64,000 bases of DNA from Candidatus Undinarchaeota archaeon (GTDB taxonomy: Archaea; SpSt-1190; JASMDC01), in NCBI GenBank assembly GCA_964519305.1, contig CAZFHY010000009.1:1-64000 (forward strand), written 5' to 3'. The notes under the pieces were generated by a model. It was not told where the DNA came from and did not search any database. It worked only from the letters and a program-made list of their open reading frames with translations. Below, in pieces: positions 48,778 to 62,315 of this stretch. Positions within the stretch are counted from its first letter, which is position 1. Each line of letters opens with the position of its first letter. The position numbers were made by a program, and so were the translations under genes.

Positions 48778-49350
48778 ATGGAGGAAATCCTTCAGGACCA
48801 TCAGTCACGCATCAACAAGAGCCGCCGCACGGTGGTAGTGTGCCACGGCGACTCTCTTACCTGGGGCTTCATGGTCAACCGGGAGGATTGCTATCCTGCA
48901 CGCCTTGAGCGCCACCTGGGCGGTGACTGGCAGGTCATCAACACGGGCCAGAACGGTGACACCGCAGAAGGCGGGCTCACCCGGCTCACTCGCGAAGCGC
49001 TCCCCAATAACCCGCGTCTCGTCATAATAGGGTTCGGCACCAACGACTTCTACGACGGCGTCCCATCCAAGCGAGTGTTCGCAGCGATGGACGAGATGGT
49101 CGGACGCGTACTAGCTGATGGCTCAGAGGTCATCCTATGGGGATTCCCGCACTCCCAGGCGTACGGTCAGGGGTACGAGTTCATCGCGCGCAAGCATAAG
49201 GTCCCGCTCCTCGACTATCTGCACGATGATATCTATGGCCAGCAGGGGAACGTGTTCCCCGACGGAGTACACCTCACGGCCAGCGGGTATGCTGCAGTAG
49301 AGGCACGGGTCCTGCCGGTGGTCAGACGGGTGCTGGGGCTCGACGCCTGA
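48778..49350 (+). CDS. SGNH/GDSL hydrolase (arylesterase-like)
   Basis: GDSLTWG, NTGQNG, GTND, DGVH blocks. Confidence 0.9.
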   Translation: MEEILQDHQSRINKSRRTVVVCHGDSLTWGFMVNREDCYPARLERHLGGDWQVINTGQNGDTAEGGLTRLTREALPNNPRLVIIGFGTNDFYDGVPSKRVFAAMDEMVGRVLADGSEVILWGFPHSQAYGQGYEFIARKHKVPLLDYLHDDIYGQQGNVFPDGVHLTASGYAAVEARVLPVVRRVLGLDA

Positions 49351-49351
49351 G

Positions 49352-50629
49352 CTACTCGATGTTGGCGTGACGCTTCTTCATTTTCTCAGAAGTCTCGCTG
49401 AGCGCCTGCTGGAGGTTGAACACGACGCCCTCAAGGAATATGAGCGAGAGGATCTCGAACAATGAGCCCATGGGCGTCAGCTCCTCGATCTGCGAGGTTA
49501 GCTGGCGGGCGATGTACGACACCTCCTTGGACTCGCGCACCCTGCCGTGTATGAGGAACACAATCTCGGCCAGCTTGCTTAGCGTGCCCTCGGGATTGGA
49601 GGTGATGGCGACGACCGTGGCACCGTTGCCGTGGGCTGCCTGGATGGGGGCGATAGTGAGGCTGGTCTCTCCCGAGCCGGAGATACCGACGATGACGTCG
49701 TCAGCTTCCACGGCGGGCATTGTCACTTCGCCGATCACATGGACACGAAGCCCCATGTGCATGAGCCGCATCCCGAAGGCGGCCCCCACCAGCCGTGAGC
49801 GTCCGGTCCCGCATACGTACACCTTGCGGTCTTTCTCGCGTGCGTCCTTGATCAGCTCGACGAACCGGTCGATCGCCTTTCCATCTAGCTCCTCGGCCAG
49901 CTTGCTCGCCTGGCTGGCATAGAAGCGCATGGTCATCCCCACGGGGACGCTGAAGGCGACGTGGCGCATCCTCGAGATTATGGTGCGTGCGGTTGTCTGG
50001 GGGTCTTTGGACTCGCGTAGCGCCCGGCCGATGACGAGTCGCTGGGCCCCGTTCATCAGCACCCGTTCAACGTGCTCCTCGTCCAGAGCACCCGCGGCGA
50101 TGACGGGGATGGTCAGCTCCCGTGATACCTGCTCGATCTCCTGGAAGGGATCGACGGTGCGCTTGGTATGGAAGCTCGTATGGACCACGACCGCGTCCAC
50201 GCCGAGCTGCTCGGCCTCTTTCGCCTTCTCAACGACGCTGCGCTCCTTGTCCACGTGCGAGAGGTCCATGTAGACCTTCACGCCCTCGTTCTTTGCGTAC
50301 TGGAGAATCGTCTTGACGATGTGTGGGGCATGGTGAGCTGTGATGATTATCGCATGAGCGCCGAACTCCCTGATTGCGCGGATCGTCTTGAACTCCTCGA
50401 TGTGCTTCAGGTCGGCCACGACCTCGAAGGGTTCCCCACGTTCTGCAAAGGTCCCATGAAGACGGCCGAGCACGTACCGCGTCCCGAGGGTCTGAAGGGT
50501 GTGGTGGTCCACCTCGAAGATACGGGCACCACCAGCCCACAGCTCGTCAGCGAGCGCGATCAGCGCGTCGATGTCGTAGCTGTCGTCCACCTTCAGATAG
50601 ACCTGGAGTTCCGGCTTCGTAGTCTCCAT
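49352..50629 (-). CDS. Fused HPS-like barrel and 6-phospho-3-hexuloisomerase (HPS-PHI)
   Basis: N-terminal OMPDC/HPS barrel (ADLK, IAAG, IGRA). C-terminal SIS PHI (GTGRSRLV, FGMRLMHMG, ISGSGET, PMGSLFE, RHANIE). Confidence 0.85.
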   Translation of the reverse strand: METTKPELQVYLKVDDSYDIDALIALADELWAGGARIFEVDHHTLQTLGTRYVLGRLHGTFAERGEPFEVVADLKHIEEFKTIRAIREFGAHAIIITAHHAPHIVKTILQYAKNEGVKVYMDLSHVDKERSVVEKAKEAEQLGVDAVVVHTSFHTKRTVDPFQEIEQVSRELTIPVIAAGALDEEHVERVLMNGAQRLVIGRALRESKDPQTTARTIISRMRHVAFSVPVGMTMRFYASQASKLAEELDGKAIDRFVELIKDAREKDRKVYVCGTGRSRLVGAAFGMRLMHMGLRVHVIGEVTMPAVEADDVIVGISGSGETSLTIAPIQAAHGNGATVVAITSNPEGTLSKLAEIVFLIHGRVRESKEVSYIARQLTSQIEELTPMGSLFEILSLIFLEGVVFNLQQALSETSEKMKKRHANIE

Positions 50630-50692
50630 GCTCCTCGCTTTTTGGAAGCTAGGGGAAGGGTTAAAAGACTAAGCCTCCCCCTCTGCCCTGCC

Positions 50693-51790
50693 ATGGAGAT
50701 GGAATCACCGGACCAGTCCCGACGCACGAGGTTGCTGGAGAACCGGGTCCACGAGCTAGAGGCGGCCATACAACGGTTCCTGGCCCCGCCAAACCTCGTG
50801 GCGACCATCTCCGAACGTCATCCCAACGGCATGGTCGTGGCACGCCTCTCGAACGGTCAGGAGGTGTTCACAACCGTGCGCCAGGGCCTTGAGGAGAAGG
50901 TGCTCCCCGGGGACCGCGTCCGTGTCGATCAGAAGAACTTCACGATCATCGACGTGCTCGGTGGCACCAGGGACTTCGATGTAGAGCGCTTCGTCGTCAT
51001 GGAGAAACCCGTGATATCCTGGGAGGACGTAGGTGGGCTTTCCGAAGAGATGCGGGAGCTAAAAGAGGTCGTGGAACTGCCGCTCACCAGTCCCGAACTG
51101 TTCCGCGAGGTGGGCATCACACCACCAAAGGGCGTGCTCCTTCACGGACCGCCCGGGACCGGTAAGACGCTGATGGCCAAGGCCGTTGCGAACGCTACCA
51201 ACGCCACGTTCATCGAAGTAGTGGGCTCGGAGCTCGCTCAGAAGTTCATCGGTGAGGGTGCAAAGCTCGTCAGGGACATATTCTCCCTGGCCCGCGACCG
51301 CTCTCCCACGCTCCTGTTCATCGACGAGGTGGACGCCATCGCTGCAAAGCGTATCGAGGTGGGCACATCCGGCGAGCGCGAGGTGCAGCGCACCTTCATG
51401 CAGCTGCTGGCAGAGATCGACGGTTTCCGCCCCTTGGGGGCCGTCAAGGTCGTCGCCGCGACCAACCGACCGGACATCCTCGATCCGGCCCTTGTGCGCC
51501 ACGGACGTCTCGACCGGCTCATCAAGGTACCGCTCCCCGACGAGAAGGGCAGGAAGGACATCGTCCAAATACACACACGTCCCATGAACACCGACGAGCT
51601 CGATGTCAAGAAGCTGGTCAAGTTCACCGACGAGATGTCGGGTGCCGACATCCACAACGTATGCACCGAGGCCGGCTACATGGCCATACGTGATAAACGT
51701 ACGAAAGTGACACAGAAGGACTTCGACGACGCCATCAAGAAGGTGCGTAAAGAGGACAAGGAAGCTGTCGTCTATTCGATGTTCAAGTAG
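50693..51790 (+). CDS. pan: Proteasome-activating nucleotidase
   Basis: Coiled coil plus PP-OB domain, GPPGTGKT, FIDEVDAI, GEREVQRT, ATNRPDILDPA. C-terminal MFK (HbYX-like). ATG at 50693 follows TTAAAA. Confidence 0.92.
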   Translation: MEMESPDQSRRTRLLENRVHELEAAIQRFLAPPNLVATISERHPNGMVVARLSNGQEVFTTVRQGLEEKVLPGDRVRVDQKNFTIIDVLGGTRDFDVERFVVMEKPVISWEDVGGLSEEMRELKEVVELPLTSPELFREVGITPPKGVLLHGPPGTGKTLMAKAVANATNATFIEVVGSELAQKFIGEGAKLVRDIFSLARDRSPTLLFIDEVDAIAAKRIEVGTSGEREVQRTFMQLLAEIDGFRPLGAVKVVAATNRPDILDPALVRHGRLDRLIKVPLPDEKGRKDIVQIHTRPMNTDELDVKKLVKFTDEMSGADIHNVCTEAGYMAIRDKRTKVTQKDFDDAIKKVRKEDKEAVVYSMFK

Positions 51791-51807
51791 AGCGGACGTG
51801 TCCGGGT

Positions 51808-52362
51808 TCAATCCCCTGACAGTGCATCGACTATCCCTGACGGTGAGCTCAATACACTGATGCCCATCATCGTATCCAGCTGCCGGGCGTTCGCTACGTC
51901 CACGGGGCGCATGGTGAGCGTTCCTGTCCGTCCCCCTGGCAGTGCCGTTATGACCTTACCTTCCTCGATGTCCGTGGGGAGCATGGTGATCGTTGCACCG
52001 CACTTGATGGCCTGTGCAACAAGATTGGGGACAAGGGTGTCCGCGATACCGCAGACGACCTTCGCCACGGTGTTCGCTGAGGCGGGAGCGACCAGAAAGG
52101 CCGCGTACACGCCCTTGTACAGATCACTGAGGAGCTTTGCCTGATTGGGCCCGTTCTCGATGACAGGTGCGGAGAACGCACCCTCGTCCAGACGATCCGT
52201 GAGCCCGTACATCCGAACCACCCGGGCGCCCTCGGCCGATAATACGGGCTGGACAATGGTCCCTTCGACGCTCACGTCCTCCATGGCCTCGAACGTAGCT
52301 TCGAGATGATGACCGGCGCCGGTGATCGCCCAGAGGATCCGTCGTGGATTGACAGGTGACAT
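51808..52362 (-). CDS. Archaeal flavoprotein (AfpA/DmrX-related, HFCD family)
   Basis: ILWAITGAG, PASANTVAKVVCGIADTLVPN, LPTD, MRPVDVAN. Confidence 0.82.
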   Translation of the reverse strand: MSPVNPRRILWAITGAGHHLEATFEAMEDVSVEGTIVQPVLSAEGARVVRMYGLTDRLDEGAFSAPVIENGPNQAKLLSDLYKGVYAAFLVAPASANTVAKVVCGIADTLVPNLVAQAIKCGATITMLPTDIEEGKVITALPGGRTGTLTMRPVDVANARQLDTMMGISVLSSPSGIVDALSGD

Positions 52363-52653
52363 TCAGATCATCCAGTCCTCGAGCACTTCGAGCACGAGGG
52401 CCTTCAGTTCACGAGGATCGTGCTCCCCTGGCTTCAATTCGTCCAAGGTTTCGGCCAGCGTGTGATCACCGATCACTTCCCGTACCCAGCTGGCCACGTC
52501 ATTGCAGTCGGGCCTGATGTGGAAAAGCAGCCCCTCTGGAGCCATTCCCAAGATGATCCAGTGCAGGTCCATGATGTCGCGGGCGACACCCTCTACACGA
52601 TCCTCGGACGACTTGACGATGAACTCGGATCCGTCGGGTGCGGAGGGCATCAT
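52363..52653 (-). CDS. DUF5752-like small protein
   Basis: M...LLFH....NDVASWVREVIGD..LAE.L motif. Confidence 0.6.
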   Translation of the reverse strand: MMPSAPDGSEFIVKSSEDRVEGVARDIMDLHWIILGMAPEGLLFHIRPDCNDVASWVREVIGDHTLAETLDELKPGEHDPRELKALVLEVLEDWMI

Positions 52654-52760
52654 CGGGGTTCCCTGCCACGTTTTCCGAGGTAAAGCTATTTATGTGGACT
52701 GGTCGGGCCGGGCCCTGTGTCTCCATAACCGTTATAATGCTCTGTGACGATAGGTAGTAT

Positions 52761-52907
52761 GTGGGCATCACCATCGACCCTGACGATCCACGATTCAAGA
52801 AGAAGCGTACACTTCGCCCCGAGGACGTAGAGGACATCGCCCTGGAGCGTCGCGAGGTCGACCTTCCTTCAACACAGCGTCCCCGTCGCAGGAAGGATGA
52901 GCGCTAG
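52761..52907 (+). CDS. Putative 48-aa basic small protein
   Basis: GTG start; MGITIDPDDPRFKKKRTLRPEDVEDIALERREVDLPSTQRPRRRKDER. TTATAA at ~52732 and AGGTAG before the start. Fills the intergenic gap. Confidence 0.55.
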   Translation: MGITIDPDDPRFKKKRTLRPEDVEDIALERREVDLPSTQRPRRRKDER

Positions 52908-52976
52908 CATCATCGCGCAGAGGGCGGGCGGGCGTCGCCGATTGATTTAAAACGCTCACCACTCATCCCGCTCCCG

Positions 52977-53462
52977 ATGGTCGCCGTACCACCCGCAGCA
53001 GGCCCCCTCATCGCCGCTGTAGGCTGCCTTGCCCTCGCTCCACGCGCTGCCAGGGGAGAGCGTGTCGAGGCAGGTGATGTGGCCTTCGGCGTGGTCGCGG
53101 GCCTGCTCCTGGCCGGCCTTACCGGGAATCTGACCACCGCTCTTGCGATGGCTATGTTCGGGGCATTGGCCTGGCCCGTGCTCCTTCTCCTGCTCGAGAT
53201 GGAGGACGCACGCATCATGCCTGCCCTTGGAGCGCTCCTGTTCGCCCCGATACCGGTTGACGGCCGTTCACTCCCGGCGTTCACTCTTGTAGCACCCTAT
53301 GCCCTGCTCGCCGCAATGACGCTGGACATGCTGGCCCAGCACGAGGTCTACGTCCCCGGCATCACCGTGGAGGTCGATGGCGGTCCCGACTTCCCGAACT
53401 TCGTCAACCTGCCTGCCGTGATCGCCATCGCGTGCCTGGCCTGCGCCCTTCTCGTCCGCTGA
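52977..53462 (+). CDS. Multi-pass membrane protein
   Basis: About 5 hydrophobic segments. TTTAAA about 25-30 nt upstream. AGDV is faintly reminiscent of A24 peptidases (not assigned). Confidence 0.6.
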   Translation: MVAVPPAAGPLIAAVGCLALAPRAARGERVEAGDVAFGVVAGLLLAGLTGNLTTALAMAMFGALAWPVLLLLLEMEDARIMPALGALLFAPIPVDGRSLPAFTLVAPYALLAAMTLDMLAQHEVYVPGITVEVDGGPDFPNFVNLPAVIAIACLACALLVR

Positions 53463-53548
53463 TCCCTGCCCCGACCGGCTGCCTTCCCCAAGGATAGGTA
53501 GAAAAAGGCCCGCGATGCGCATCGCCTCTACTGGACGGGTGACCGAGC

Positions 53549-54355
53549 ATGCTCTATGAGAGGATTGTTGATACAGAAAGGCTCGAAGCGGACCTCTACG
53601 GCCTGTGCGCTGTGGAGTCCCTCACGACCGGCCGTGGCGAGTACATGGCCGACGGCTTCGAGGACATCGGGTTCTCCGTGGAGCGACAGCAGATGATCAA
53701 CTATCCCCACGAAAATAAGATGATGCAGGACCTGTGGAACGACGAGAACGTCATCGCTGAGTACAAGGGCGATCCGGGCTCGGACAGGTACCTGTTGGTG
53801 ATGGGCCACCACGACAAGGTCCCCGAGGGCAAAGGGGCCAACGACAATGGATCGGGATCGGTCATGCTCCTGGAGCTGGCACGTCAGCTGAGCGAGCGTG
53901 GCGAGAAGGTGAACGTGCGGTTCGCGTCCTACGGTCTGGAGGAGATTGGTCTCGACGGGGCCTCTGTGTACGTCAAATCTCTATCGGACACCGAGCGCGA
54001 CAACATCATCGCGGCAGTCAATCTGGACTGTATCGGTGCCGGCTCGGAGCTCACCCTCACCATGAAGGACCGTCGGAGCGCGACCACCGACTGGGTGAAC
54101 GACGCCATCAAGCAGAAGGCGGACAGCATGGGCATCTCCTACTACGAGCGTGCGTCAATGCGCGGTTCGAGCGACCATGCGGTGACCGCCAACGCCGGCA
54201 TCCCCACTGCATCGCTCTGCCGACAGGAGGACGGAAAGATCCCCAACCTCCACTCGAAGGACGACGTGGTCGAGAACATCGACCTCGGACTGCTGACCGA
54301 GACCGGTGACCTAGTCTACCACGCGATGGTCGACATCTATCGGGATAAGAGGTAG
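53549..54355 (+). CDS. M28 family metallopeptidase
   Basis: GHHD, GANDNGSG, EEIGLDGA, NLDCIG, SDH, LHSKDD. Confidence 0.9.
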   Translation: MLYERIVDTERLEADLYGLCAVESLTTGRGEYMADGFEDIGFSVERQQMINYPHENKMMQDLWNDENVIAEYKGDPGSDRYLLVMGHHDKVPEGKGANDNGSGSVMLLELARQLSERGEKVNVRFASYGLEEIGLDGASVYVKSLSDTERDNIIAAVNLDCIGAGSELTLTMKDRRSATTDWVNDAIKQKADSMGISYYERASMRGSSDHAVTANAGIPTASLCRQEDGKIPNLHSKDDVVENIDLGLLTETGDLVYHAMVDIYRDKR

Positions 54356-54360
54356 ATCGA

Positions 54361-54681
54361 CTACTCGCCCTTTGCCTTCTTTACGAGCTCAGCGAGGTTA
54401 TCCTGCAGGCGCGCAGCCTCTGCCTCGGCCTTCGCCCTGACCTCTGCGGGAAGTTCTATCTGGGCCTCGAGGACGTCAGCGTACATCCGCGCGACCTTCG
54501 CCTTCTGCTCCCTTACGTCGACCTCGAGGACCACCTCGTGGTCACCGATGGACTTCTTGAGCAGGGTCGTTCCCTTGACCTTGGACGATACGGCCCAGCC
54601 GAGGTCCTTGAGCTTACCAAGGAGCGTGACCTCCTTAACCTCGCCTGAGACGAGTCCCCCCAACGAAAACGCGTACTTCAT
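54361..54681 (-). CDS. Hypothetical protein
   Basis: 106-aa ORF with coding-like composition. Confidence 0.65.
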   Translation of the reverse strand: MKYAFSLGGLVSGEVKEVTLLGKLKDLGWAVSSKVKGTTLLKKSIGDHEVVLEVDVREQKAKVARMYADVLEAQIELPAEVRAKAEAEAARLQDNLAELVKKAKGE

Positions 54682-54739
54682 GTGATCACTTGGAGAGTAA
54701 GGAGCGGCTCAGACTTTTGTTCCTTTCGATTAGGGGACC

Positions 54740-54765
54740 CGCCCCGCGGGAATGCCCGCGGGGCG
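54740..54765 (-). terminator. Perfect 11-bp GC hairpin just 3' of pnp
   Basis: CGCCCCGCGGG-AATG-CCCGCGGGGCG, 13 nt after the stop. Confidence 0.6.
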
Positions 54766-54778
54766 ATAGCTGTCTTCC

Positions 54779-57052
54779 CTAGTCTCTGCGGTCGCGGGAC
54801 CTGCGGTCGCGGTCCCTGCCGCCTCGGCGGTCACGGCCGCCACCACGGCGGTCGCGGTCACGGCCTCCACTGCGCCGGGGGCGTTCGGGCTCCACCCACC
54901 CGGGCGGCGGGGGGTGCAGGGCCTTCATGGAGACGTCGACCTTTCCGAAGGCTACCTTGGTCACGACGACCTTCACCGTGTCGCCGAGCTTGACCCGGTC
55001 CTCGATCTTGTCCACATGGCCGTACTCCAGCTCCGAGATGTGGAGCATCCCGTCCTTGCCGGGGATTAGGTTGACGAAGGCGCCGAAGGGCTTGATCGTG
55101 ACGACCTTGGCCTCCTCGAATATCTCGCCCACCTGCACCTCGCGAACGATGTCCCTGACGGCCTTCTCGGCCTTTGCGGCCATCTCGGCGTCGTTGGTGG
55201 TGATCATCACTGTACCGTCGTCCTCGATATCCATCTGGACGCCGGTCTCATCGGTGATGCTCCGGATCATCTTCCCGCCAGGGCCGATGACCGCGCCGAT
55301 CTTTTCCGGATCGATCTTTAAGGCAATGATACGCGGCGCGTACGCGGACAGCTCCTGCCTCGGCTCGGCGATCGCGCCCTGGATGACGTTAAGGATGAAG
55401 TTGTTCGCCATCCTTCCCTGGGTGATCGCTTCTCGGATGATGGGCATGGAGATACCACGGGTCTTTGTGTCCATCTGGACGGCTGTGACACCGTCACGGG
55501 TGGCGGTGATCTTGAAGTCCATACCGCCGTTCCCATCCTCCATGTCCTGGATGTCCGTGATGACCTTCCAGCGCTCACCGTCGGAAGCAAGCCCGATAGC
55601 TATCCCGGCCACGGGCTTCTTGATCGGGACACCCGCGTCCAGGAGGGCCAGCGTCGATGCGCATGTGGAGCCCATGGACGAGGAGCCGTTGGAGCTCATG
55701 ACCTCGGAGACCATCCTGATCGTGTAGGGGAACTCCTCCAGCGTGGGGAGCACCGGGCGAAGGGCTTTCTCCGCCAGCATGCCATGGCCCTGCTCTCGTC
55801 GACCGGCGCCGCGGAGCTTCTTTACCTCGCCCACGCTGAACGGTGGGAAGTTGTAGTGATGGAAGTACCGCTTCTTGATGTCGTCCTCCATCGACTCCAC
55901 GATGAGAGTGTCACCGGGGGCACCCAGGGTGACCACCGATAGAATGTGGGTCTCTCCTCGCTGGAAGAATCCCGTGCCATGGAGGCGAGGGAGCACGGCC
56001 ACGTCGGCCGCGAGGTGCCGGATATCGGTAATATTGCGGCCGTCGACGCGCTGTTCGCGGTCCAGGAGAGCCCGGGTGACCTGATCGTCGATGAACTCCT
56101 GGAAGCACTTCTTGAGGATGCCCTTGAGGTAGTCCTTGGCGGCCTCCTCGTCACGCTCCTGGTTGACGTACTCCCTGGCCATCTCGTTGACAACCAGTTC
56201 TTTCATCTCTCTCATGATCTCCTTGCGCTCGCCCTTTGAGCCGCGGGGCTGGTTGAAGACGTAGGTCTGGAGATGCGGGATCATGCGCTCCTTGAGCCGG
56301 TCAGCAACGACCTTCTCCTCGGGAGAGAGCTCGCCCGTGAACTTCAGGTCCTCCTTCTTCGCCTTGGGCTTACCGATCTGCTGGCGGACTTCCTCGATGA
56401 AGGCGCACAGCGGCCCGAGGGCACGCATGGCCTCTTCGAAGGCGCCGGCCATGACGTCGTCCGGGGCCTCGTTGCAGTCGCACTCCACCATGGTGATGCG
56501 GGAGCCGTCACCGGTGACCAGAAGGTCTACAATGGACTCCTCGAGCTCCTCCACGGTGGGGTTCACGATGTACCGACCGTCGATGTAACCGATGCGGACA
56601 CCGGCCACAGGTCCGTCGAATGGGATGCTGGAGAGGTGGAGGGCCATGCAGCCGCCGATGATGGCAGGGACGTCGGGCTTGTTCGCCTCGTCGAAGGTGA
56701 GGGGCATGCAGATGACTTGGACCTCGTTGCGCATGTTCTGGTCGAAGAGCGGGCGGATACCGCGGTCGATGGAGCGTCCGGTCAGCACAGCGTCGAGGGA
56801 AGGTCTGCCTTCCCGCTTGGTGAACCGGGAGCCTTTGATGCGCCCGCACGCGTAGTATCGCTCTTCGTATTCGACCATGAGAGGGAAGAAGTCCATCCCT
56901 TCGCGAGCGGAGGGGGACATGTTCGCTGAGCAGAGCACTACGGTCTCGCCTAGTTTTATGGTGAGTGCGGCATCGGATTGAGGTCCGTACCTACCTGTCT
57001 CGATCGTGAGCGTCTTTCCTGCTACATCGCAGGTGAATTGTCGAATGTTCAT
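54779..57052 (-). CDS. pnp: Bacterial-type polyribonucleotide nucleotidyltransferase (PNPase)
   Basis: DFFPL.V.YEERYYA.G.I, REGRPS, RVDGR, FQRGET, HYNFPPFSVGE, GRREQGHG, SNGSSSM, MDFK, KH domain (IGAVIGPGGK), S1 domain (FGAFV..DGMLHISEL). Confidence 0.95.
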   Translation of the reverse strand: MNIRQFTCDVAGKTLTIETGRYGPQSDAALTIKLGETVVLCSANMSPSAREGMDFFPLMVEYEERYYACGRIKGSRFTKREGRPSLDAVLTGRSIDRGIRPLFDQNMRNEVQVICMPLTFDEANKPDVPAIIGGCMALHLSSIPFDGPVAGVRIGYIDGRYIVNPTVEELEESIVDLLVTGDGSRITMVECDCNEAPDDVMAGAFEEAMRALGPLCAFIEEVRQQIGKPKAKKEDLKFTGELSPEEKVVADRLKERMIPHLQTYVFNQPRGSKGERKEIMREMKELVVNEMAREYVNQERDEEAAKDYLKGILKKCFQEFIDDQVTRALLDREQRVDGRNITDIRHLAADVAVLPRLHGTGFFQRGETHILSVVTLGAPGDTLIVESMEDDIKKRYFHHYNFPPFSVGEVKKLRGAGRREQGHGMLAEKALRPVLPTLEEFPYTIRMVSEVMSSNGSSSMGSTCASTLALLDAGVPIKKPVAGIAIGLASDGERWKVITDIQDMEDGNGGMDFKITATRDGVTAVQMDTKTRGISMPIIREAITQGRMANNFILNVIQGAIAEPRQELSAYAPRIIALKIDPEKIGAVIGPGGKMIRSITDETGVQMDIEDDGTVMITTNDAEMAAKAEKAVRDIVREVQVGEIFEEAKVVTIKPFGAFVNLIPGKDGMLHISELEYGHVDKIEDRVKLGDTVKVVVTKVAFGKVDVSMKALHPPPPGWVEPERPRRSGGRDRDRRGGGRDRRGGRDRDRRSRDRRD

Positions 57053-57076
57053 GTGGCATTCACTAAAGGGGTATCC

Positions 57077-57084
57077 TTTTAAAT
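57077..57084 (-). promoter_or_regulatory. Archaeal TATA box of pnp
   Basis: ATTTAAAA on the minus strand, 24 nt upstream of the ATG (near-leaderless spacing). Confidence 0.6.
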
Positions 57085-57183
57085 GAGCCGGTCAGGCCTC
57101 CGCAGTGGGCCGCGGTATCACGGTTCTTGCCATGGGAAAGGTATATATAGCGGTCGTGGGGCCGCGCCGACAAGGTGACGCTG

Positions 57184-57720
57184 ATGGACATATCCATTGA
57201 CTATCTGGAGCGCGAGCAGATGAAGGTCGGACCGAGCGTCGGTATGGGTTTCGGGCCCACATATGGCATCCCACCATCAGGCCCCTTCCACACCAGCGAT
57301 GTCGTGTTCGACAACAACTACGTCGCAAGGCAGACCGAGGAGTTCGAGCCCGCCATCGAAGCGTTGGCCGAGCAGTACGCTGCCAAGGACGGTTGTGAGG
57401 TCATGGCCTACCACGACCACAGCCATACGACGTGGTACAATACCATCGATAAAGAGATGGAACACGTCCACTTCAAGGGCGAGATGGACGACTTCAAGGG
57501 CTTCATCGAGGACGCGAAGGCGGCCGGGTACGGCACGCCCGAGAACGTCCGGGTGAACGCCTCAGTGGTCGACTGGCTCACCCACCCGGTCCAGACCTGG
57601 CGCACGAAGCAGGCTGTATCCTCCTACATGGAGGAGGTCGGCTCCGAGCTCAAGGTCACAGAGACCGAAGAGGACGTAGGCAACCGACACATCTACAAGC
57701 GCGAGATTACGTTCGAATGA
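57184..57720 (+). CDS. Hypothetical protein
   Basis: TATATATA box, GGTGA SD, then ATG at 57184. Confidence 0.72.
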   Translation: MDISIDYLEREQMKVGPSVGMGFGPTYGIPPSGPFHTSDVVFDNNYVARQTEEFEPAIEALAEQYAAKDGCEVMAYHDHSHTTWYNTIDKEMEHVHFKGEMDDFKGFIEDAKAAGYGTPENVRVNASVVDWLTHPVQTWRTKQAVSSYMEEVGSELKVTETEEDVGNRHIYKREITFE

Positions 57721-57734
57721 ACTGACCTCAATCC

Positions 57735-57777
57735 ACGGGGGCGGTCGTTACCGCGGCCGTCCCCGTTTCCTTTTATC
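57735..57777 (+). terminator. GC hairpin plus T tract
   Basis: ACGGGGGCGGTCG-TTAC-CGCGGCCGTCCCCGT-TTCCTTTTATC. Confidence 0.55.
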
Positions 57778-57855
57778 ATGCACTGCGGGAAAAGGCTGTG
57801 TATGAATCTCACACTACCGGTGAGGTTGCTCGTTCCAGATAGGGTGGTCCGCTCG

Positions 57856-58263
57856 TTACCGGACAATACGTGAGTTCTCGGGAGCCATGACGAGCCAGTC
57901 CTCGTCGATGCCCGCCATATCGGACCCGCTGGTGGAGCAGTGCGTCTTGAGGCGGTTGATCGAGCGCTTGAGCTCGGACATGTCCTTCTCGCGCAGTTGC
58001 TTGATCTTGACGAGCATGATGGTGTTGCCCTTCCGGAAGTGCGTGAGGATGGTCTCTGTATCTGCGAAGTCCTCGAGCTGGGACGTACGGATCTGGAGAG
58101 CCGAGTCGCCCGAGTCCACGTTCTTGAACTTGATCTCGGGGATATCCGAGGTCTTTGAAGCATGAGCATTATGGATATGATGGTACTCGTCGAGGTGTGT
58201 GGGTCGTTTGTGCTTGAAGCGCTCCAACAGCTTCTCGCCCATTCTGTAGAACCGTTCGACCAT
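57856..58263 (-). CDS. sepF: Archaeal cell division protein SepF
   Basis: L.DFAD...IL...RKGNTIMLVKI..L.......LKR.I..LK......G.D.AGI.EDWLVMAP. Confidence 0.82.
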   Translation of the reverse strand: MVERFYRMGEKLLERFKHKRPTHLDEYHHIHNAHASKTSDIPEIKFKNVDSGDSALQIRTSQLEDFADTETILTHFRKGNTIMLVKIKQLREKDMSELKRSINRLKTHCSTSGSDMAGIDEDWLVMAPENSRIVR

Positions 58264-58314
58264 AATCTATCCCAAGATGCTGGAGCGGTCTTCCTTTAAA
58301 TTCCTTCCGCCGAG

Positions 58315-58572
58315 CTATCTTTGGAGCGTCTCCAGAGTACTGGCGATGTTCCAGATATCGGTCCTTGTGTGCTCTGGCAGGTTCGGATCATTGGAGATAT
58401 CGTCCAACCGGTTGATTGCCTCGTTCACGCGAACGGCCATTGCTCTGTCCTTGCCTACAAGGATGCTCTTTACGTCCTCGGCAGTCTTGCGTATGTTCCG
58501 CGGCACCGATCGATCATCGAGTATCTCTTCGAGTATCTCGCAAACCTGAGAAAGGATGTTTTCAGCGTCCAT
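58315..58572 (-). CDS. UPF0147 family protein
   Basis: ILDDRSVPRNIRKTA and LDDISNDPNLPEHTRTDIWNIAS.LE. Confidence 0.9.
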   Translation of the reverse strand: MDAENILSQVCEILEEILDDRSVPRNIRKTAEDVKSILVGKDRAMAVRVNEAINRLDDISNDPNLPEHTRTDIWNIASTLETLQR

Positions 58573-59560
58573 GTCCCTCATCTCCTAGCCTTTCCCTCAG
58601 GACCCTCAGGAGGCCCTTGATACCCTCGTCCATTTCCACCACGCCATTGACGCTGGCAGCGGCATCGTGACCACCACCACTCCCTTGGATGATGGCCTCA
58701 ATGTTCGCGAGAAGGTCCTTGTAGACGTGAATCCCAGTGCTTTTTATAAAGGTTTTTCTCGCCCGCGCTGTTATCCGGAACCCCTTCTTCTTCTTGGCAC
58801 CGACGAAGGCTATGTCGGCACCGAACCTGATGAGAGCATTGGCCACATCGGCCTCGAAGGAGTTCACCCTCGAGACGGCCACTATCCACGGACCGGTCAA
58901 AGTGAGCTCGGCCCGTTGGGCTCCCTTGAGGATCGCGATCCTCGAGGAGCGATCAGGTTCCAGGTGGATGGCATCGAGCACCTCCTGGTAATCCACGTCG
59001 GTCGTGGCCAGGAGCTTGGCCATGTCTCGGAAGGTGCTGGCCTGTGCCCGTCTGAATGACATTGTGTCCGCGACCATGCCTGCGATCATCGCTGCGGCCG
59101 CACGCTTCGTGGGTTCTACGTCCGCTGCCTCGAAGAGGCGGAACACGAGCTCGCATGCAGACGGAGAGGTGGCGTCCGTCAGGGAAGCATGATAATCGCA
59201 TGGTCCCGAATAGGGATGATGGTCCACAACGACAGGCCGCTTCCATGGGACCAGGGGCGCGAACTGGTCGGGGTTCTGGACGTCCACGAGAACGGGAAGC
59301 CCTCCCGGGTTCGGAGGCCTGACCTCGAACTCGGCGTCCAGGTAGTCGATGAGCTTACGCGCGGCAACGCTCGCATGCGAACCCGATCCGATCCTCGACG
59401 GGATATCGAGCTTTTTCAACAGTTCCTGGAGCGCTATGCAGGCTCCTGCGGCATCGAGGTCGGCGTTCTGATGAGTGATGAGGAAAGCGCCCTCCCTCGC
59501 AGCGGTGAGGGCCTCAAGGACGTTTTGAACGTCCTCCCCGGTACCTTTTTTCTCAGGCAA
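58562..59560 (-). CDS. DHH/DHHA1 phosphoesterase (NrnA-like)
   Basis: THQNADLDA, VVVDHH, GMVADT, GGGHDAAA. Follows prefoldin beta, as is common in archaea. Confidence 0.87.
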   Translation of the reverse strand: MPEKKGTGEDVQNVLEALTAAREGAFLITHQNADLDAAGACIALQELLKKLDIPSRIGSGSHASVAARKLIDYLDAEFEVRPPNPGGLPVLVDVQNPDQFAPLVPWKRPVVVDHHPYSGPCDYHASLTDATSPSACELVFRLFEAADVEPTKRAAAAMIAGMVADTMSFRRAQASTFRDMAKLLATTDVDYQEVLDAIHLEPDRSSRIAILKGAQRAELTLTGPWIVAVSRVNSFEADVANALIRFGADIAFVGAKKKKGFRITARARKTFIKSTGIHVYKDLLANIEAIIQGSGGGHDAAASVNGVVEMDEGIKGLLRVLRERLGDEGHGR

Positions 59561-59906
59561 TGGGGCCGGCCGGTCCCTGGAGGAGCTTGGTCACCTTGTC
59601 AGAGAGGTCGGTCACCTTCTCGTTGACCTTCTCCTCCTGACGGGTGAGAGTCTTGATTCGAAGCTCCAGGGTCTCACGCCGGTCGTCCAGTTCCTTTGTC
59701 ACGTCCTTGGCCTTCATCTTGGCAAGGATGGGGCCCACTGCCTTGTACACGTCCTCGTCCTTGACCCCTTCCAGGGATTCAAGGGCGGACATGACATCGG
59801 TCAGCTGGGTCTCGATCTGCTGTTTCTGGATGAGAATTGTCTGTGCCTGCTGCTGATACTGTTGCAGCTGGAGCACCATGTGCTGTGCTTGTGGGGATAT
59901 GTCCAT
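59553..59906 (-). CDS. pfdB: Prefoldin beta subunit
   Basis: Gln-rich coiled coil, VYKAVGPIL, ETLELRIKTL.RQE. Confidence 0.93.
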   Translation of the reverse strand: MDISPQAQHMVLQLQQYQQQAQTILIQKQQIETQLTDVMSALESLEGVKDEDVYKAVGPILAKMKAKDVTKELDDRRETLELRIKTLTRQEEKVNEKVTDLSDKVTKLLQGPAGPIA

Positions 59907-59907
59907 G

Positions 59908-60123
59908 TCAACTCACCTCGTCAACGCTGAGGATTATCTTAAGCCACCTGCAGGTGGCGTTCATTGCGGCACGAAGTGCAGTCAGATCGTCGGCCTCGAT
60001 CAATATGTCGTCACCATCGAACCGAGTTCGTGCTCGCCGCTGCTCGTTAGTTCCTAGAGGCTGCGTCAGCACCGTGCGGACGAGCTCCGGTCGTTCCGTG
60101 GTCAGGCGGGCTGTGAAGGGGAT
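59908..60123 (-). CDS. pcc1: KEOPS complex subunit Pcc1 (missed by ORF track)
   Basis: ILIEADDLTALRAAMNATCRWLKII between rpoP and pfdB. No ATG/GTG at the expected N-terminus; ATC at 60123 proposed. Confidence 0.78.
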   Translation of the reverse strand: MPFTARLTTERPELVRTVLTQPLGTNEQRRARTRFDGDDILIEADDLTALRAAMNATCRWLKIILSVDEVS

Positions 60124-60135
60124 AACAGGAGCCCC

Positions 60136-60273
60136 CTACTGGCACAGCACCGACTTGATGACCCGAGGTCGAGCCTTGGCCAGGATCTTATAGCCGCAGA
60201 ACGGGCATCTGATCCGGCGCATCTCCGAGGTCGAAGGGTCGATCGTACGCTTGCACTTGAGACAGACGAACAC
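60136..60273 (-). CDS. rpoP: DNA-directed RNA polymerase subunit P (Rpo12)
   Basis: C..C...IRCPFCGYKILAKAR. GTG start after GGAGGTGA. Confidence 0.9.
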   Translation of the reverse strand: MFVCLKCKRTIDPSTSEMRRIRCPFCGYKILAKARPRVIKSVLCQ

Positions 60274-60278
60274 CCGGT

Positions 60279-60503
60279 TCACCTCCGCCTCGTGGATGGA
60301 GCGTAAGCGCCTCCAGCGATCTTGACGCCACACTTGGTACAGGACCAGAGTCCTGCGTTGGCGCGCTTCAGCTTCGGAGCCTTGCACTGGGGGCAGACAT
60401 GGAACGCGCGGGAACTGTTCTCTACCTTCGCCACCATCCTGCGGACCCTCTTACCGTAGCGGCAGCCGAAACGGCCGGCGCTTCCTACTTTCTTTGTTGC
60501 CAT
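60279..60503 (-). CDS. rpl37ae: 50S ribosomal protein L37Ae (eL43)
   Basis: TKKVGSAGRFG.RYG, CPQC...CTKCG..IAGGAY.P. Confidence 0.95.
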   Translation of the reverse strand: MATKKVGSAGRFGCRYGKRVRRMVAKVENSSRAFHVCPQCKAPKLKRANAGLWSCTKCGVKIAGGAYAPSTRRR

Positions 60504-60530
60504 GATGATCGCCTGTTGTCGTGATGTGAA

Positions 60531-60608
60531 TGGTGGGGCCGCCGAGATTTGAACTCAGGTCACTACCACCCCAAGGTAGGAGGATAGACCAAGCTACCCT
60601 ACGGCCCC
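60531..60608 (-). tRNA. tRNA-Pro(GGG), CCA encoded, no intron
   Basis: GGGGCCGTAGGGTAGCTTGGTCTATCCTCCTACC-TTGGGGT-GGTAGTGACCTGAGTTCAAATCTCGGCGGCCCCACCA folds as a cloverleaf. Confidence 0.95.
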
Positions 60609-60642
60609 TTGATCACGTCTTGTGTGTACCCTCCACCTCCTA

Positions 60643-60840
60643 TTAGGCCCTCTTGTACCGCGCGATCTCGCTCACGAGATCGATCTGCGAGAGGAGCATG
60701 CGCCTACAGCAGTATCGCATGACGTTCAGGTCGTTGAGCACCGTTTCGGGGTGCTCACCCGCGGCTATGCGGCTCTGGTACGTATCGAAGTGCTCAGAGA
60801 CGGGTGCACCACAGGTAAAGCATCGTACGGGGATAATCAT
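60643..60840 (-). CDS. rpoN: DNA-directed RNA polymerase subunit N (Rpo10)
   Basis: MIIPVRCFTCG...RYCCRRMLLS. Confidence 0.96.
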   Translation of the reverse strand: MIIPVRCFTCGAPVSEHFDTYQSRIAAGEHPETVLNDLNVMRYCCRRMLLSQIDLVSEIARYKRA

Positions 60841-60847
60841 TGTTCGC

Positions 60848-61249
60848 TCACCGGTATGACTTCTGTCGCCTCGACCGGGGCTTGGACCGGTTGGGCTTGG
60901 ACTTCTCGGTGCGCCGGGGATCGGCCACCAGGAGATGGCGGTCGTAGGTGAGGAAGAGGCGCTTGAGCTTCTCGTCCTCGGTGAACTCCACCAATCCCTT
61001 CGCGATGGCGAGCCGCACGGCCTCTGACTGTGCGATCCGGCCGCCGCCGCTGACGTTAACACGGATGTTGACGCTCTTTACGGCCTTTCCCGCCAGGAGC
61101 AGGGGCTCACGGATGCGTTCCCGGGCAAAGGCGGGCGTGAACAGTTCCAGGGGGACGCTGTTGATCTTGATGACGCCCTTTCCCTTGGAGAGGGTGGCCC
61201 TCGCCGTGGATCTCTTCCGCTTGCCGCTCGTATGGATGATCTTGCTCAT
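60848..61249 (-). CDS. rps9: 30S ribosomal protein S9
   Basis: SGKRK, V.GGG..Q.EAVRLAIAKGL, YDRHLLVADPRR, QKSYR. Confidence 0.96.
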   Translation of the reverse strand: MSKIIHTSGKRKRSTARATLSKGKGVIKINSVPLELFTPAFARERIREPLLLAGKAVKSVNIRVNVSGGGRIAQSEAVRLAIAKGLVEFTEDEKLKRLFLTYDRHLLVADPRRTEKSKPNRSKPRSRRQKSYR

Positions 61250-61677
61250 GACTCCCACCTGTCACGTGATATACCGAGCTCCCGGGAGATGTCCCCCAGG
61301 CGCATGTACTTTCCGGTGTTTGAGGAGGCGATATTGATATCAGAGATGGTCTGGCTCTCAATGTCCTTGAGGGCCTGGGGCTTGCCGATGAACACCTTGA
61401 GGCGGTGGAAAGCATCGCGTCCGCGCTTGCGCTTGTAGGGCAGCATGCCGCGGACCGCCCTACGAAGGATGCGGTCAGGCATACGGGGGAAGTGGGGTCC
61501 GTGATAGGGATGACCCCTTGACCGGCGCTGGCGGTAGCGACTGAGTATGTGATCGCGGCTGCCTGTGATGATGGCCGACTCAGCGTTTATGATGCTGATC
61601 TTCTCGCCCTCCAGGAGCTTTTTTGCGACTTGGGCGGCCAACCGCCCCATGATGAGGTCCTTGGCATCGATGATCAT
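61246..61677 (-). CDS. rpl13: 50S ribosomal protein L13
   Basis: IIDAKDLIMGRLAA, RRAVRGMLPYK. Confidence 0.96.
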   Translation of the reverse strand: MIIDAKDLIMGRLAAQVAKKLLEGEKISIINAESAIITGSRDHILSRYRQRRSRGHPYHGPHFPRMPDRILRRAVRGMLPYKRKRGRDAFHRLKVFIGKPQALKDIESQTISDINIASSNTGKYMRLGDISRELGISRDRWES

Positions 61678-61680
61678 AGT

Positions 61681-62034
61681 CTACACCATCACCCGCACGT
61701 CGGTGCCCTTGGGGTGCTTCTTGACCATCTCCTCGATGGAGAGGGTCTTGCCCCCGGCCTTTGTGATCTTGTCCCGGGCCTTCTCGGAGAAGGTGAGAGC
61801 AGCGATGGTGAGCTTGTGGTTGAGCTCGCCGGTACTGAGCACCTTTCCCGGAACAACGATGGTCTCGCCCTTGTTGGTATGGCGGTTGAGCCGGGAGAGG
61901 TTGATGACCGGTCTTCCCCGGGTCGGCTTAGTAAGCCGCTCGGAGAGGTCCTGCCAGATAGGGGCGTCTCCCTTGGTCCCAGCCCGCTTAAGGGCGATTA
62001 TGAGCCTTCTGAGGTTATCGTCCGTCTTTTTCAT
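61681..62034 (-). CDS. rpl18e: 50S ribosomal protein L18e
   Basis: INLSRLNR, VVPGKVLSTG, FSEKARDKI..AGG. Confidence 0.95.
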   Translation of the reverse strand: MKKTDDNLRRLIIALKRAGTKGDAPIWQDLSERLTKPTRGRPVINLSRLNRHTNKGETIVVPGKVLSTGELNHKLTIAALTFSEKARDKITKAGGKTLSIEEMVKKHPKGTDVRVMV

Positions 62035-62234
62035 GGTCTCGACCCGTGAACTTGTGAAATCGCCGGTCCGAGGCGAGCATTGCCTCCCGGCTTGCCTTGC
62101 GGATTCAAAGACTAATGGTTTTATAGGTTGCGGTTAAGCGAGCCCAGTCTCCCGGGGGACGGAAGGCCAGTCCGGTCGTCGGAAGACTTCGTTCGCCATA
62201 ACCTTTTTATCGCTCCCTAGCTGAACAATGATCA

Positions 62235-62315
62235 CCCGGATGATGAGCTCGCGTTCCCGATGCCCCGGACCCGGCGGGTCCGGTCGCTGTGACGAGGATT
62301 TTGAGTTCTGACGGG
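62235..62315 (+). ncRNA. Box C/D guide sRNA, predicted target tRNA C34
   Basis: Terminal stem CCCG/CGGG. C box ATGATGA (62240-46), D' CCGA (62257-60), internal hairpin, C' GTGACGA (62289-95), D CTGA (62308-11). TTTTTAT box ~25 nt upstream. Confidence 0.8.

Follow-up and report, generated by a model that had tools for sequence, protein, structure and literature searches.

The stretch of DNA studied here, called the window, comprises 64,000 nucleotides (nt) of a 139-kb contig (C9) from an archaeon recorded as Candidatus Undinarchaeota. On its minus strand, at 54779-57052, lies pnp, a gene for polynucleotide phosphorylase (PNPase, or polyribonucleotide nucleotidyltransferase). Our reading is that PNPase supplies phosphorolytic 3'-5' RNA decay in this archaeon, and that the exosome ring survives beside it as a non-catalytic remnant. 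We put the probability of this reading at roughly two in three. An initial annotation of the window had proposed a domesticated horizontal acquisition that took over exosome function. The acquisition is borne out, with pnp fixed, ameliorated and under purifying selection. The takeover stands in part. The genes of the ring have not been replaced; a catalytic takeover, with the active site of Rrp41 lost, is the best reading.

pnp encodes an intact PNPase

We refer to the genome that contains the window as G000 and to an independently assembled sister genome of the same genus as G001. In the open reading frame (ORF) list of the window, pnp is uninterrupted over 757 codons. Its 757-amino-acid (aa) product scores 817.1 bits against the NCBIfam equivalog TIGR03591 (polynuc_phos; cut-off 525.05) and covers profile positions 2-688 of 689. 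Pfam recognizes RNase_PH in two stretches, RNase_PH_C, KH_1 and S1, which is the PNPase domain order. All domains lie on the minus strand. RNase_PH_C of the first, N-terminal RNase PH-like core spans aa 147-210 (56423-56614, computed from residue numbers; PF03725, E = 8e-17). The second, catalytic RNase PH domain spans aa 344-476 (55625-56023, the best PF01138 stretch). The KH domain (aa 578-633, 55154-55321; PF00013, E = 2.6e-11) and the S1 domain (aa 639-700, 54953-55138; PF00575, E = 9.4e-13) follow.

The best solved-structure match is the PNPase 5yjj_A (623 bits). In the alignment to this structure the catalytic motifs KREGRP, HHYNFP...GRRE.GHG, SNGSSS and MEDGNGGMDFK are all in place. SNGSSS, in the second RNase PH domain, provides the phosphate-binding serine triplet (S457-S459). 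MEDGNGGMDFK (55511-55543, minus strand), which motif counts place with the EDGxGGMDFK variant, provides the two metal-binding aspartates, D506 and D512, and the lysine K514. We take the lysine of this motif to be the counterpart of E. coli K494. In E. coli PNPase, D486 and D492 bind metal and are equivalent to D182 and D188 of Rrp41, according to an excerpt of PMC3539426.

Selection also points to a gene in use. Between G000 and G001 the ratio of nonsynonymous to synonymous substitution rates (dN/dS) is 0.090 for pnp and 0.067-0.080 for psmA, SBDS, uS2 and PAN. We predict from these sequence features that the product works as a phosphorolytic 3'-5' exoribonuclease and RNA-tailing polymerase. 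The initial annotation had likewise described an intact PNPase of 757 aa with two RNase PH domains, KH, S1 and a catalytic region, and the TIGR03591, Pfam and structure matches agree with it.

Rrp41 of the exosome has lost its active-site residues

The exosome replacement that had been suggested does not hold for the genes. A search of the genome found a complete Rrp4-Rrp41-Rrp42 set on contig C12. The gene order there is RNase P3, RNase P2, psmA (proteasome alpha), SBDS, Rrp4, Rrp41, Rrp42 and uS2, the classical archaeal operon.

Rrp41 of G000 scores 115.9 bits against TIGR02065, below the cut-off of 318.7. The best matches in 15 phylum-mates without PNPase reach 198-322 bits (13 at 288 or more; those of G012 and G014 match in pieces), and 22 of 24 other archaea sampled score 262-419 bits. 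Solved Rrp41s align with the G000 protein along its full length. According to the excerpt of PMC3539426, R99, S138 and R139 of S. solfataricus Rrp41 bind phosphate together with the main chain of G137-R139, D182 and D188 coordinate the catalytic Mg2+, and D182A abolishes activity. The four active-site columns (two phosphate-binding arginines and two Mg-binding aspartates) read R, R, D (E in two) and D in 40 of 40 canonical Rrp41s. In G000 they read H, L, A and T, and in G001 H, L, G and T. The G-S/T-R loop of the G000 protein is S-V-L, and its metal site has no acidic pair. Because the phosphate- and Mg-binding residues are all lost, the ring presumably can no longer carry out phosphorolysis, and we predict that it is inactive. 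A move of the active site to Rrp42 was rejected, as the G000 Rrp42 has D, V, E and K at those columns, like canonical Rrp42s.

The ring genes are nonetheless maintained as intact ORFs. Their dN/dS values (Rrp41 0.15, Rrp42 0.18, Rrp4 0.18) are about twice those of the neighbouring housekeeping genes (0.07-0.08) and far under 1. On the Rrp41 tree, terminal branches have a median length of 0.34 substitutions per column, and the stem of G000 and G001 is at least 2.67. From the long stem and the low dN/dS we conclude that a phase of rapid change gave way to renewed constraint, a sign that the ring may be kept for a non-catalytic role. An attempt to establish a native origin of the G000 Rrp41 from this tree failed, the branch being too long.

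Beyond pnp, rrp41 and rrp42, the G000 genome holds no further RNase PH-domain gene; no bacterial RNase PH was found in it, and no RNB-family enzyme (RNase R or Rrp44-like). A hydrolytic partner like eukaryotic Rrp44 was rejected on the lack of an RNB domain. The beta-CASP proteins of G000 are aCPSF1 (893 bits), a shorter aCPSF-like protein and an RNase J-family protein. With the ring site lost and no other RNase PH-domain gene present, PNPase is most likely the only phosphorolytic 3'-5' exonuclease of the cell.

PNPase and the state of the exosome across archaea

We sampled 17 species genomes of the window's phylum, fifteen of them tiny (0.6-1.2 Mb). PNPase occurs only in G000 and G001; it was found in none of the 15 tiny genomes and in none of 24 other archaeal genomes sampled. 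A second group of carriers lies elsewhere. Another class, labelled Thermoplasmata in its records and containing G041, has PNPase in 32 of its 37 species genomes (E <= 1e-100). Among 401 genomes sampled from the phylum of this class, 33 are carriers, 32 within the class and one outside.

The two groups belong to different phyla. By kinship codes, G000 and G001 (3.6-3.8 Mb, about 60% G+C) fall in a class with the 15 genomes of 0.6-1.2 Mb, and the sister is labelled Undinarchaeales archaeon. Proteasome alpha of G000 is 54-62% identical to that of its small-genome class-mates and 50% to that of the other class, in agreement with these codes. PAN was tried as a second marker of affinity and proved uninformative, since its best matches in the small-genome class-mates are ORFs of 750-850 aa that match in the AAA+ part only. 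A large-genome relative within an otherwise tiny-genome lineage would in itself be of interest.

The 37 genomes of the other class were scored for PNPase and for ring genes. They are related and so not independent, and the completeness of these metagenome-assembled genomes (MAGs) is not given. Among the PNPase carriers, eight keep canonical Rrp41 and Rrp42, including G047, which has PNPase and ring on a single 3.6-Mb contig. Three have Rrp42 and a degenerate Rrp41 (columns C-V-K-V, R-R-L-L and S-M-L-L), and in 21 neither Rrp41 nor Rrp42 was detected. Where PNPase is absent, two genomes have a canonical ring and three have no detectable Rrp41 or Rrp42. Degenerate Rrp41 thus occurs in five genomes (G000, G001, G049, G050 and G051), all five of which carry PNPase, and for 31 of the 40 canonical Rrp41s in the alignment the source genome has no PNPase match. 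Mapped on the archaeal PNPase tree, ring status changes at least five times; seven changes follow if loss is irreversible and the PNPase tree tracks the organisms.

Outside the PNPase-rich class, two more carriers were seen: G042 (locus L045, on a 4.1-kb contig) and G093 (on C112). G042 also has a canonical Rrp41 (346 bits), and its short PNPase contig could be mis-binned. Within the PNPase-bearing class, bacterial-type RNase PH was found at L151 (G077) and L152 (G076), at 310-313 bits against the TIGR01966 cut-off of 141.5. L153 (G075) and L157 (G072, with one in-frame TGA) are probable further cases, and similar RNase PH-like matches of about 250 aa in G044, G079, G053, G052, G051 and G050 are left unclassified. 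RNase PH is a second bacterial phosphorolytic RNase in archaea.

Origin of the PNPase

The best 120 relatives of the G000 PNPase among 5.8 billion proteins share 54-95% identity with it (one 95%, one 69%, the rest 54-62%). Those with names are nearly all Thermoplasmata or Thermoplasmatota MAGs, plus one Proteinoplasmatales, and some lie on contigs of 3.6-5.2 Mb. One entry of this match list, P0051, is 57% identical to the query and labelled [Eubacterium] cellulosolvens; it sits amid archaeal-type PNPases and may be a contaminant contig or a mislabel.

The nearest other clusters, from an index-free search of 1.84 billion representatives, are 44-51% identical. Three of the top ten representatives carry an organism name, and all three are Patescibacteria. 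A pattern scan of species genomes, biased to sequences sharing 8-mers with the query, returned G001, two Thermoplasmata genomes and then mostly Uhrbacteria, Parcubacteria, Peregrinibacteria and Gracilibacteria.

The phylogenies are consistent with these matches. In a FastTree phylogeny of 235 rows, the 33 archaeal rows (G041 entered twice; the G042 and G093 PNPases left out) group together with support of 100. They lie inside a set with support of 99 whose named members are mostly Uhrbacteria. A quick IQ-TREE search under LG+C20+F+G4 with 60 rows recovers the archaeal clade (support 100, stem 0.39) inside a 99-supported set with the Uhrbacteria-type clade. The archaeal PNPases thus appear as a monophyletic clade nested in Uhrbacteria-type Patescibacteria sequences, and the initial hunch of a Patescibacteria-type enzyme, based on its GRIKGSRF and QDMEDGxGGMDFK variants, proved sound.

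Three sequence marks accompany the clade. The motif EDG.GGMDFK, found in 30 of the 33 archaeal rows, in 46 of the 47 from Uhrbacteria-type sequences and in none of the 155 from other bacteria, is diagnostic of the archaeal and Uhrbacteria-type clade. An IKG[SP]RF loop, one residue longer, and a long R/G/D-rich tail are distributed similarly. All 33 archaeal rows and 43 of the 47 Uhrbacteria-type rows have a tail of at least 30 aa after S1, as against a median of 16 aa in 147 other bacterial rows. In the G000 protein this C-terminal low-complexity tail, rich in Arg, Gly and Asp, covers aa 711-757 (54782-54922, minus strand); as a guess, it binds RNA.

The branching of the two archaeal groups varies between trees. 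The G000/G001 PNPase is sister to that of the other class in the IQ-TREE result (88 in the Shimodaira-Hasegawa-like approximate likelihood ratio test), nested within it in FastTree (27-34) and part of a polytomy in the archaeal PNPase tree. Either the gene moved between archaeal lineages or it entered twice from related donors. The two groups show no co-transferred neighbours and no common pnp context: tblastn with the flanking ORFs gave no matches, and the neighbours of pnp in the other class (ABC ATPase, Big_5, hydrogenase, PRPP synthase and glyoxalase) are unrelated.

Sixteen records titled 'uncultured Gammaproteobacteria' (L015, L016, L019, L036 and 12 further loci) have PNPases that interleave with those of Uhrbacteria in both trees. 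Given this interleaving, either their labels are doubtful or further transfers have taken place.

Interpretation and alternative readings

We propose the following course of events. The ancestor of pnp would have passed from an Uhrbacteria-like Patescibacteria donor into archaea, where the gene would now be fixed, host-adapted, strongly constrained and transcribed from a putative archaeal-type promoter. PNPase would have come first and been universally retained, and the exosome, then dispensable, would have been repeatedly inactivated or lost. Loss of R99, G137-S138-R139, D182 and D188 (S. solfataricus numbering) from Rrp41 would leave a ring without phosphorolysis, kept for non-catalytic work, for instance to bind RNA or act as a scaffold. 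The G000 lineage would then represent an intermediate state, in which an inert ring under selection coexists with an active-looking PNPase. For a broader version of this proposal we see even odds. It holds that archaea evolved, independently and more than once, a eukaryote-like inert but retained exosome ring after a Patescibacteria-type PNPase made its site redundant. The G000 lineage would be in the 'dead but conserved ring' state, and the other class would show intact, degenerate and no ring.

Several points weigh against our reading. The canonical Rrp41 site is kept in eight PNPase genomes of the other class and in G042, so PNPase does not force exosome decay. Because the genomes are related, the association of PNPase with a dead ring is a pattern, not a statistical test, and 'not detected' in MAGs of unstated completeness is no proof of absence. 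The tree cannot place the G000/G001 Rrp41 on so long a stem, and its native origin rests on operon context. The degenerate Rrp41 might have acquired another kind of chemistry. The Csl4 N-terminal domain (PF14382, a short profile of 38 positions) has no match in G000. Finally, among the public runs listed with the pnp stretch there is no RNA run.

PNPase could instead have been recruited mainly to serve elsewhere, for example in RNA 3' tailing, in adaptation to stress or cold, in the nucleotide pool or in DNA repair. The decay of Rrp41 would then be unrelated, and bulk 3'-5' decay would be left to other factors or would not take place. Bacterial PNPase has several functions, and G000 has aCPSF1, the second aCPSF-like protein and the RNase J-family protein at its disposal. 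An archaeon may also manage without a 3'-5' exonuclease, since no such activity had yet been described in Methanococci, according to an excerpt of PMC7144898. Two patterns speak the other way. Exosome loss or inactivation recurs in PNPase-bearing lineages, with its five or more changes, and the site is kept in all 40 canonical Rrp41s, 31 of them from genomes without PNPase. Together these tie the two systems to each other, and recruitment for an unrelated role is unlikely.

The two enzymes might also simply coexist, with PNPase an accessory and the ring still the main active 3'-5' exonuclease by means of substitute residues. Nine PNPase genomes keep a canonical Rrp41 site, which means that some archaea do have two active enzymes side by side, and the G000 ring genes are under purifying selection. 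In G000, however, all four phosphate- and Mg-binding positions are replaced by H, L, A and T, the G-S/T-R loop is S-V-L and the metal site has no acidic pair. Mutation of D182 alone kills activity in the S. solfataricus enzyme, according to the excerpt of PMC3539426. We consider coexistence of two active enzymes in G000 improbable.

Full replacement, in which PNPase displaced the exosome and the latter is absent from G000, would fit the 21 PNPase genomes of the other class without detectable Rrp41 or Rrp42. It is very improbable here and is refuted for G000 by the operon on C12: both G000 and G001 keep Rrp4, Rrp41 and Rrp42 in the classical arrangement, with intact ORFs at dN/dS 0.15-0.18.

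That pnp or the whole of C9 stems from a co-occurring organism, so that PNPase and dead exosome do not share one cell, is hardly credible: G000 is a MAG with some estimated contamination and its pnp and exosome operon lie on separate contigs, but the gene order, assembly and composition data of the next section speak against it, and a PNPase of the same clade sits on the single 3.6-Mb contig of G047.

pnp as a resident of the chromosome

G000 totals 3.63 Mb in 42 contigs and is an estimated 99.8% complete and 4.29% contaminated. A chimeric join or mis-binning of pnp was rejected on four grounds: synteny with G001, junction-spanning contigs, host-like composition and single-copy markers.

G001 aligns to the window in one unbroken block over 54198-62315 at about 90% nt identity, which spans pnp and the archaeal genes on one side. 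Further syntenic blocks lie on the other side of pnp, and G001 holds both pnp and the exosome genes. The stretch around pnp is present in eight public runs from eight samples and two studies. In two of these runs, one per study, single per-run contigs of 18-19 kb cover 52000-60000 with 0 differences, and the contig of a third run covers pnp and both junctions. No alternative joints were reported in per-run contigs around pnp. These contigs are not fully independent evidence, as the runs may be the source of the assembly. With G001 synteny they indicate that the gene is not chimeric, a concern that the initial annotation had raised.

That annotation had also called the composition host-like, and the measurements agree. 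The codon-usage fit of pnp is at the 90th percentile of 1747 long ORFs, its G+C content at third codon positions is 0.83 (genome mean 0.74), and its tetranucleotide distance ranks at the 58th percentile among 409 windows of the genome. The tetranucleotide profiles of C9 and C12 correlate at 0.99. Markers are single-copy in the bin on both contigs: uS9, uL13, L18e and prefoldin beta on C9, and uS2, SBDS and psmA on C12, where psmA has an additional 32%-identical paralogue match on C18.

Signals and neighbouring genes

A TATA-like box, TTTAAAA, lies at 57077-57083 (minus strand), with its end 24 nt upstream of the ATG, and is shared by G001. It was correctly noted in the initial annotation and probably serves as the promoter. 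Its distance from the ATG implies a leaderless or very short-leader pnp mRNA. The feature had been drawn as 54779-57084; the boundary at 54779 stands, the coding sequence ends at 57052, and the remainder is putative promoter. The predicted 3' hairpin also withstood inspection. At 54739-54766 (minus strand), 12 nt past the UAG stop, the RNA folds into a G+C-rich stem of 12 bp with a 4-nt loop, which may act as a terminator or stabiliser. For the whole 119-nt stretch containing it, z is -1.9, and 8 of 200 shuffles fold as well or better.

By Pfam, the neighbours of pnp include SepF, UPF0147, a DHH protein and prefoldin beta, all archaeal. The initial annotation had named archaeal neighbours, among them ribosomal genes; the former are confirmed by Pfam, and the ribosomal ORFs were recognized from translations only. 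Upstream of pnp on the same strand, 57856-60503 holds L37Ae- and RpoP-like ORFs (from translations only), prefoldin beta, DHH, UPF0147 and SepF. We assume that in the classical archaeal exosome superoperon Rrp42 is followed by L37Ae, RpoP and prefoldin beta. If this order holds, the second half of the superoperon has become detached here, and pnp lies about 3 kb downstream of it. No NCBIfam model matched the DHH protein (332 aa); a nanoRNase-like role is our guess.

Two ORFs flank pnp directly, at 54361-54681 (minus strand, 106 aa, coiled-coil-like) and 57175-57720 (plus strand, 181 aa). Neither has a Pfam family above cut-off; both are conserved in G001 with dN/dS of 0.08-0.10, and tblastn found no counterpart of either beside pnp in the loci of the other archaeal class or of bacteria. 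An M28-family peptidase gene at 53549-54355 (plus strand), just downstream of a neighbour of pnp, has no counterpart at that position in G001. The interval 53463-54197 is unmatched at this place in G001, where the flanking blocks lie 63 nt apart. G001 in turn carries about 1.9 kb of extra DNA between the blocks matching 48822-51857 and 51849-53462.

Comparison with known systems

In a full-text search, with most subscription journals and supplements outside its scope, we found no literature on an archaeal PNPase or a naturally inactive archaeal Rrp41. PNPase genes are automatically annotated in public MAG records, so their presence is known to databases; it is the interpretation that was not found in the literature searched. 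At least two archaeal lineages have PNPase as a fixed gene passed on vertically: the window's family, and a class of another phylum in which 32 of 37 species genomes carry it. Alongside it the exosome is found intact, catalytically degenerate or undetected, which changes the picture of 3'-5' decay in archaea. Gene flow from Patescibacteria to archaea is documented as well, for a housekeeping RNA enzyme. The degenerate ring of G000, still under selection, offers a testable system for a non-catalytic exosome role and for the swap of core RNA-decay machines. If our broader proposal is true, these lineages show, as a natural time series, how a core RNA-decay machine is displaced by a non-orthologous one, and they give a prokaryotic model of the loss of catalysis in the eukaryotic Exo9 core.

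The G000 enzyme resembles bacterial PNPase (TIGR03591; 5yjj, 3cdi, 4am3) in its order of core 1, helical linker, core 2, KH and S1 and in its SSS and D...D.K motifs. Unlike the bacterial gene, it lies in an archaeal chromosome, is preceded by a TATA-like box and lacks rpsO upstream. Its EDGxGGMDFK and IKGSRF variants and R/G/D tail are common only to Uhrbacteria-type Patescibacteria and the other archaeal PNPases.

The G000 exosome resembles that of other archaea (S. solfataricus; 2br2, 2je6, 4ba1) in having the three genes in the same operon with RNase P, proteasome alpha and SBDS. It differs in an Rrp41 that lacks R99, S138/R139, D182 and D188 and is predicted to be inactive.

According to the excerpt of PMC7144898, an account of 2020, most Archaea rely on the exosome for 3'-5' decay, Halobacteria and Methanomicrobiales on aRNase R, and Bacteria on PNPase. 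As in the aRNase R archaea so described, a bacterial-type 3'-5' exonuclease would stand in for the exosome in G000. Their enzyme is hydrolytic and their ring is gone, whereas G000 has a phosphorolytic PNPase and its degenerate ring persists.

The closest analogue of the G000 state would be the eukaryotic Exo9 core. According to an excerpt of PMC5735172, this core is no longer phosphorolytic and has to rely on other nucleases. Like the Exo9 core so described (yeast and animal, a nine-subunit-type RNase PH ring), the G000 ring lacks a phosphorolytic site and would form an archaeal parallel. Eukaryotes attach the hydrolytic Rrp44 and Rrp6 to the ring, whereas G000 is without an RNB-family enzyme. 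Its candidate substitute is instead a separate, self-contained PNPase of bacterial origin.

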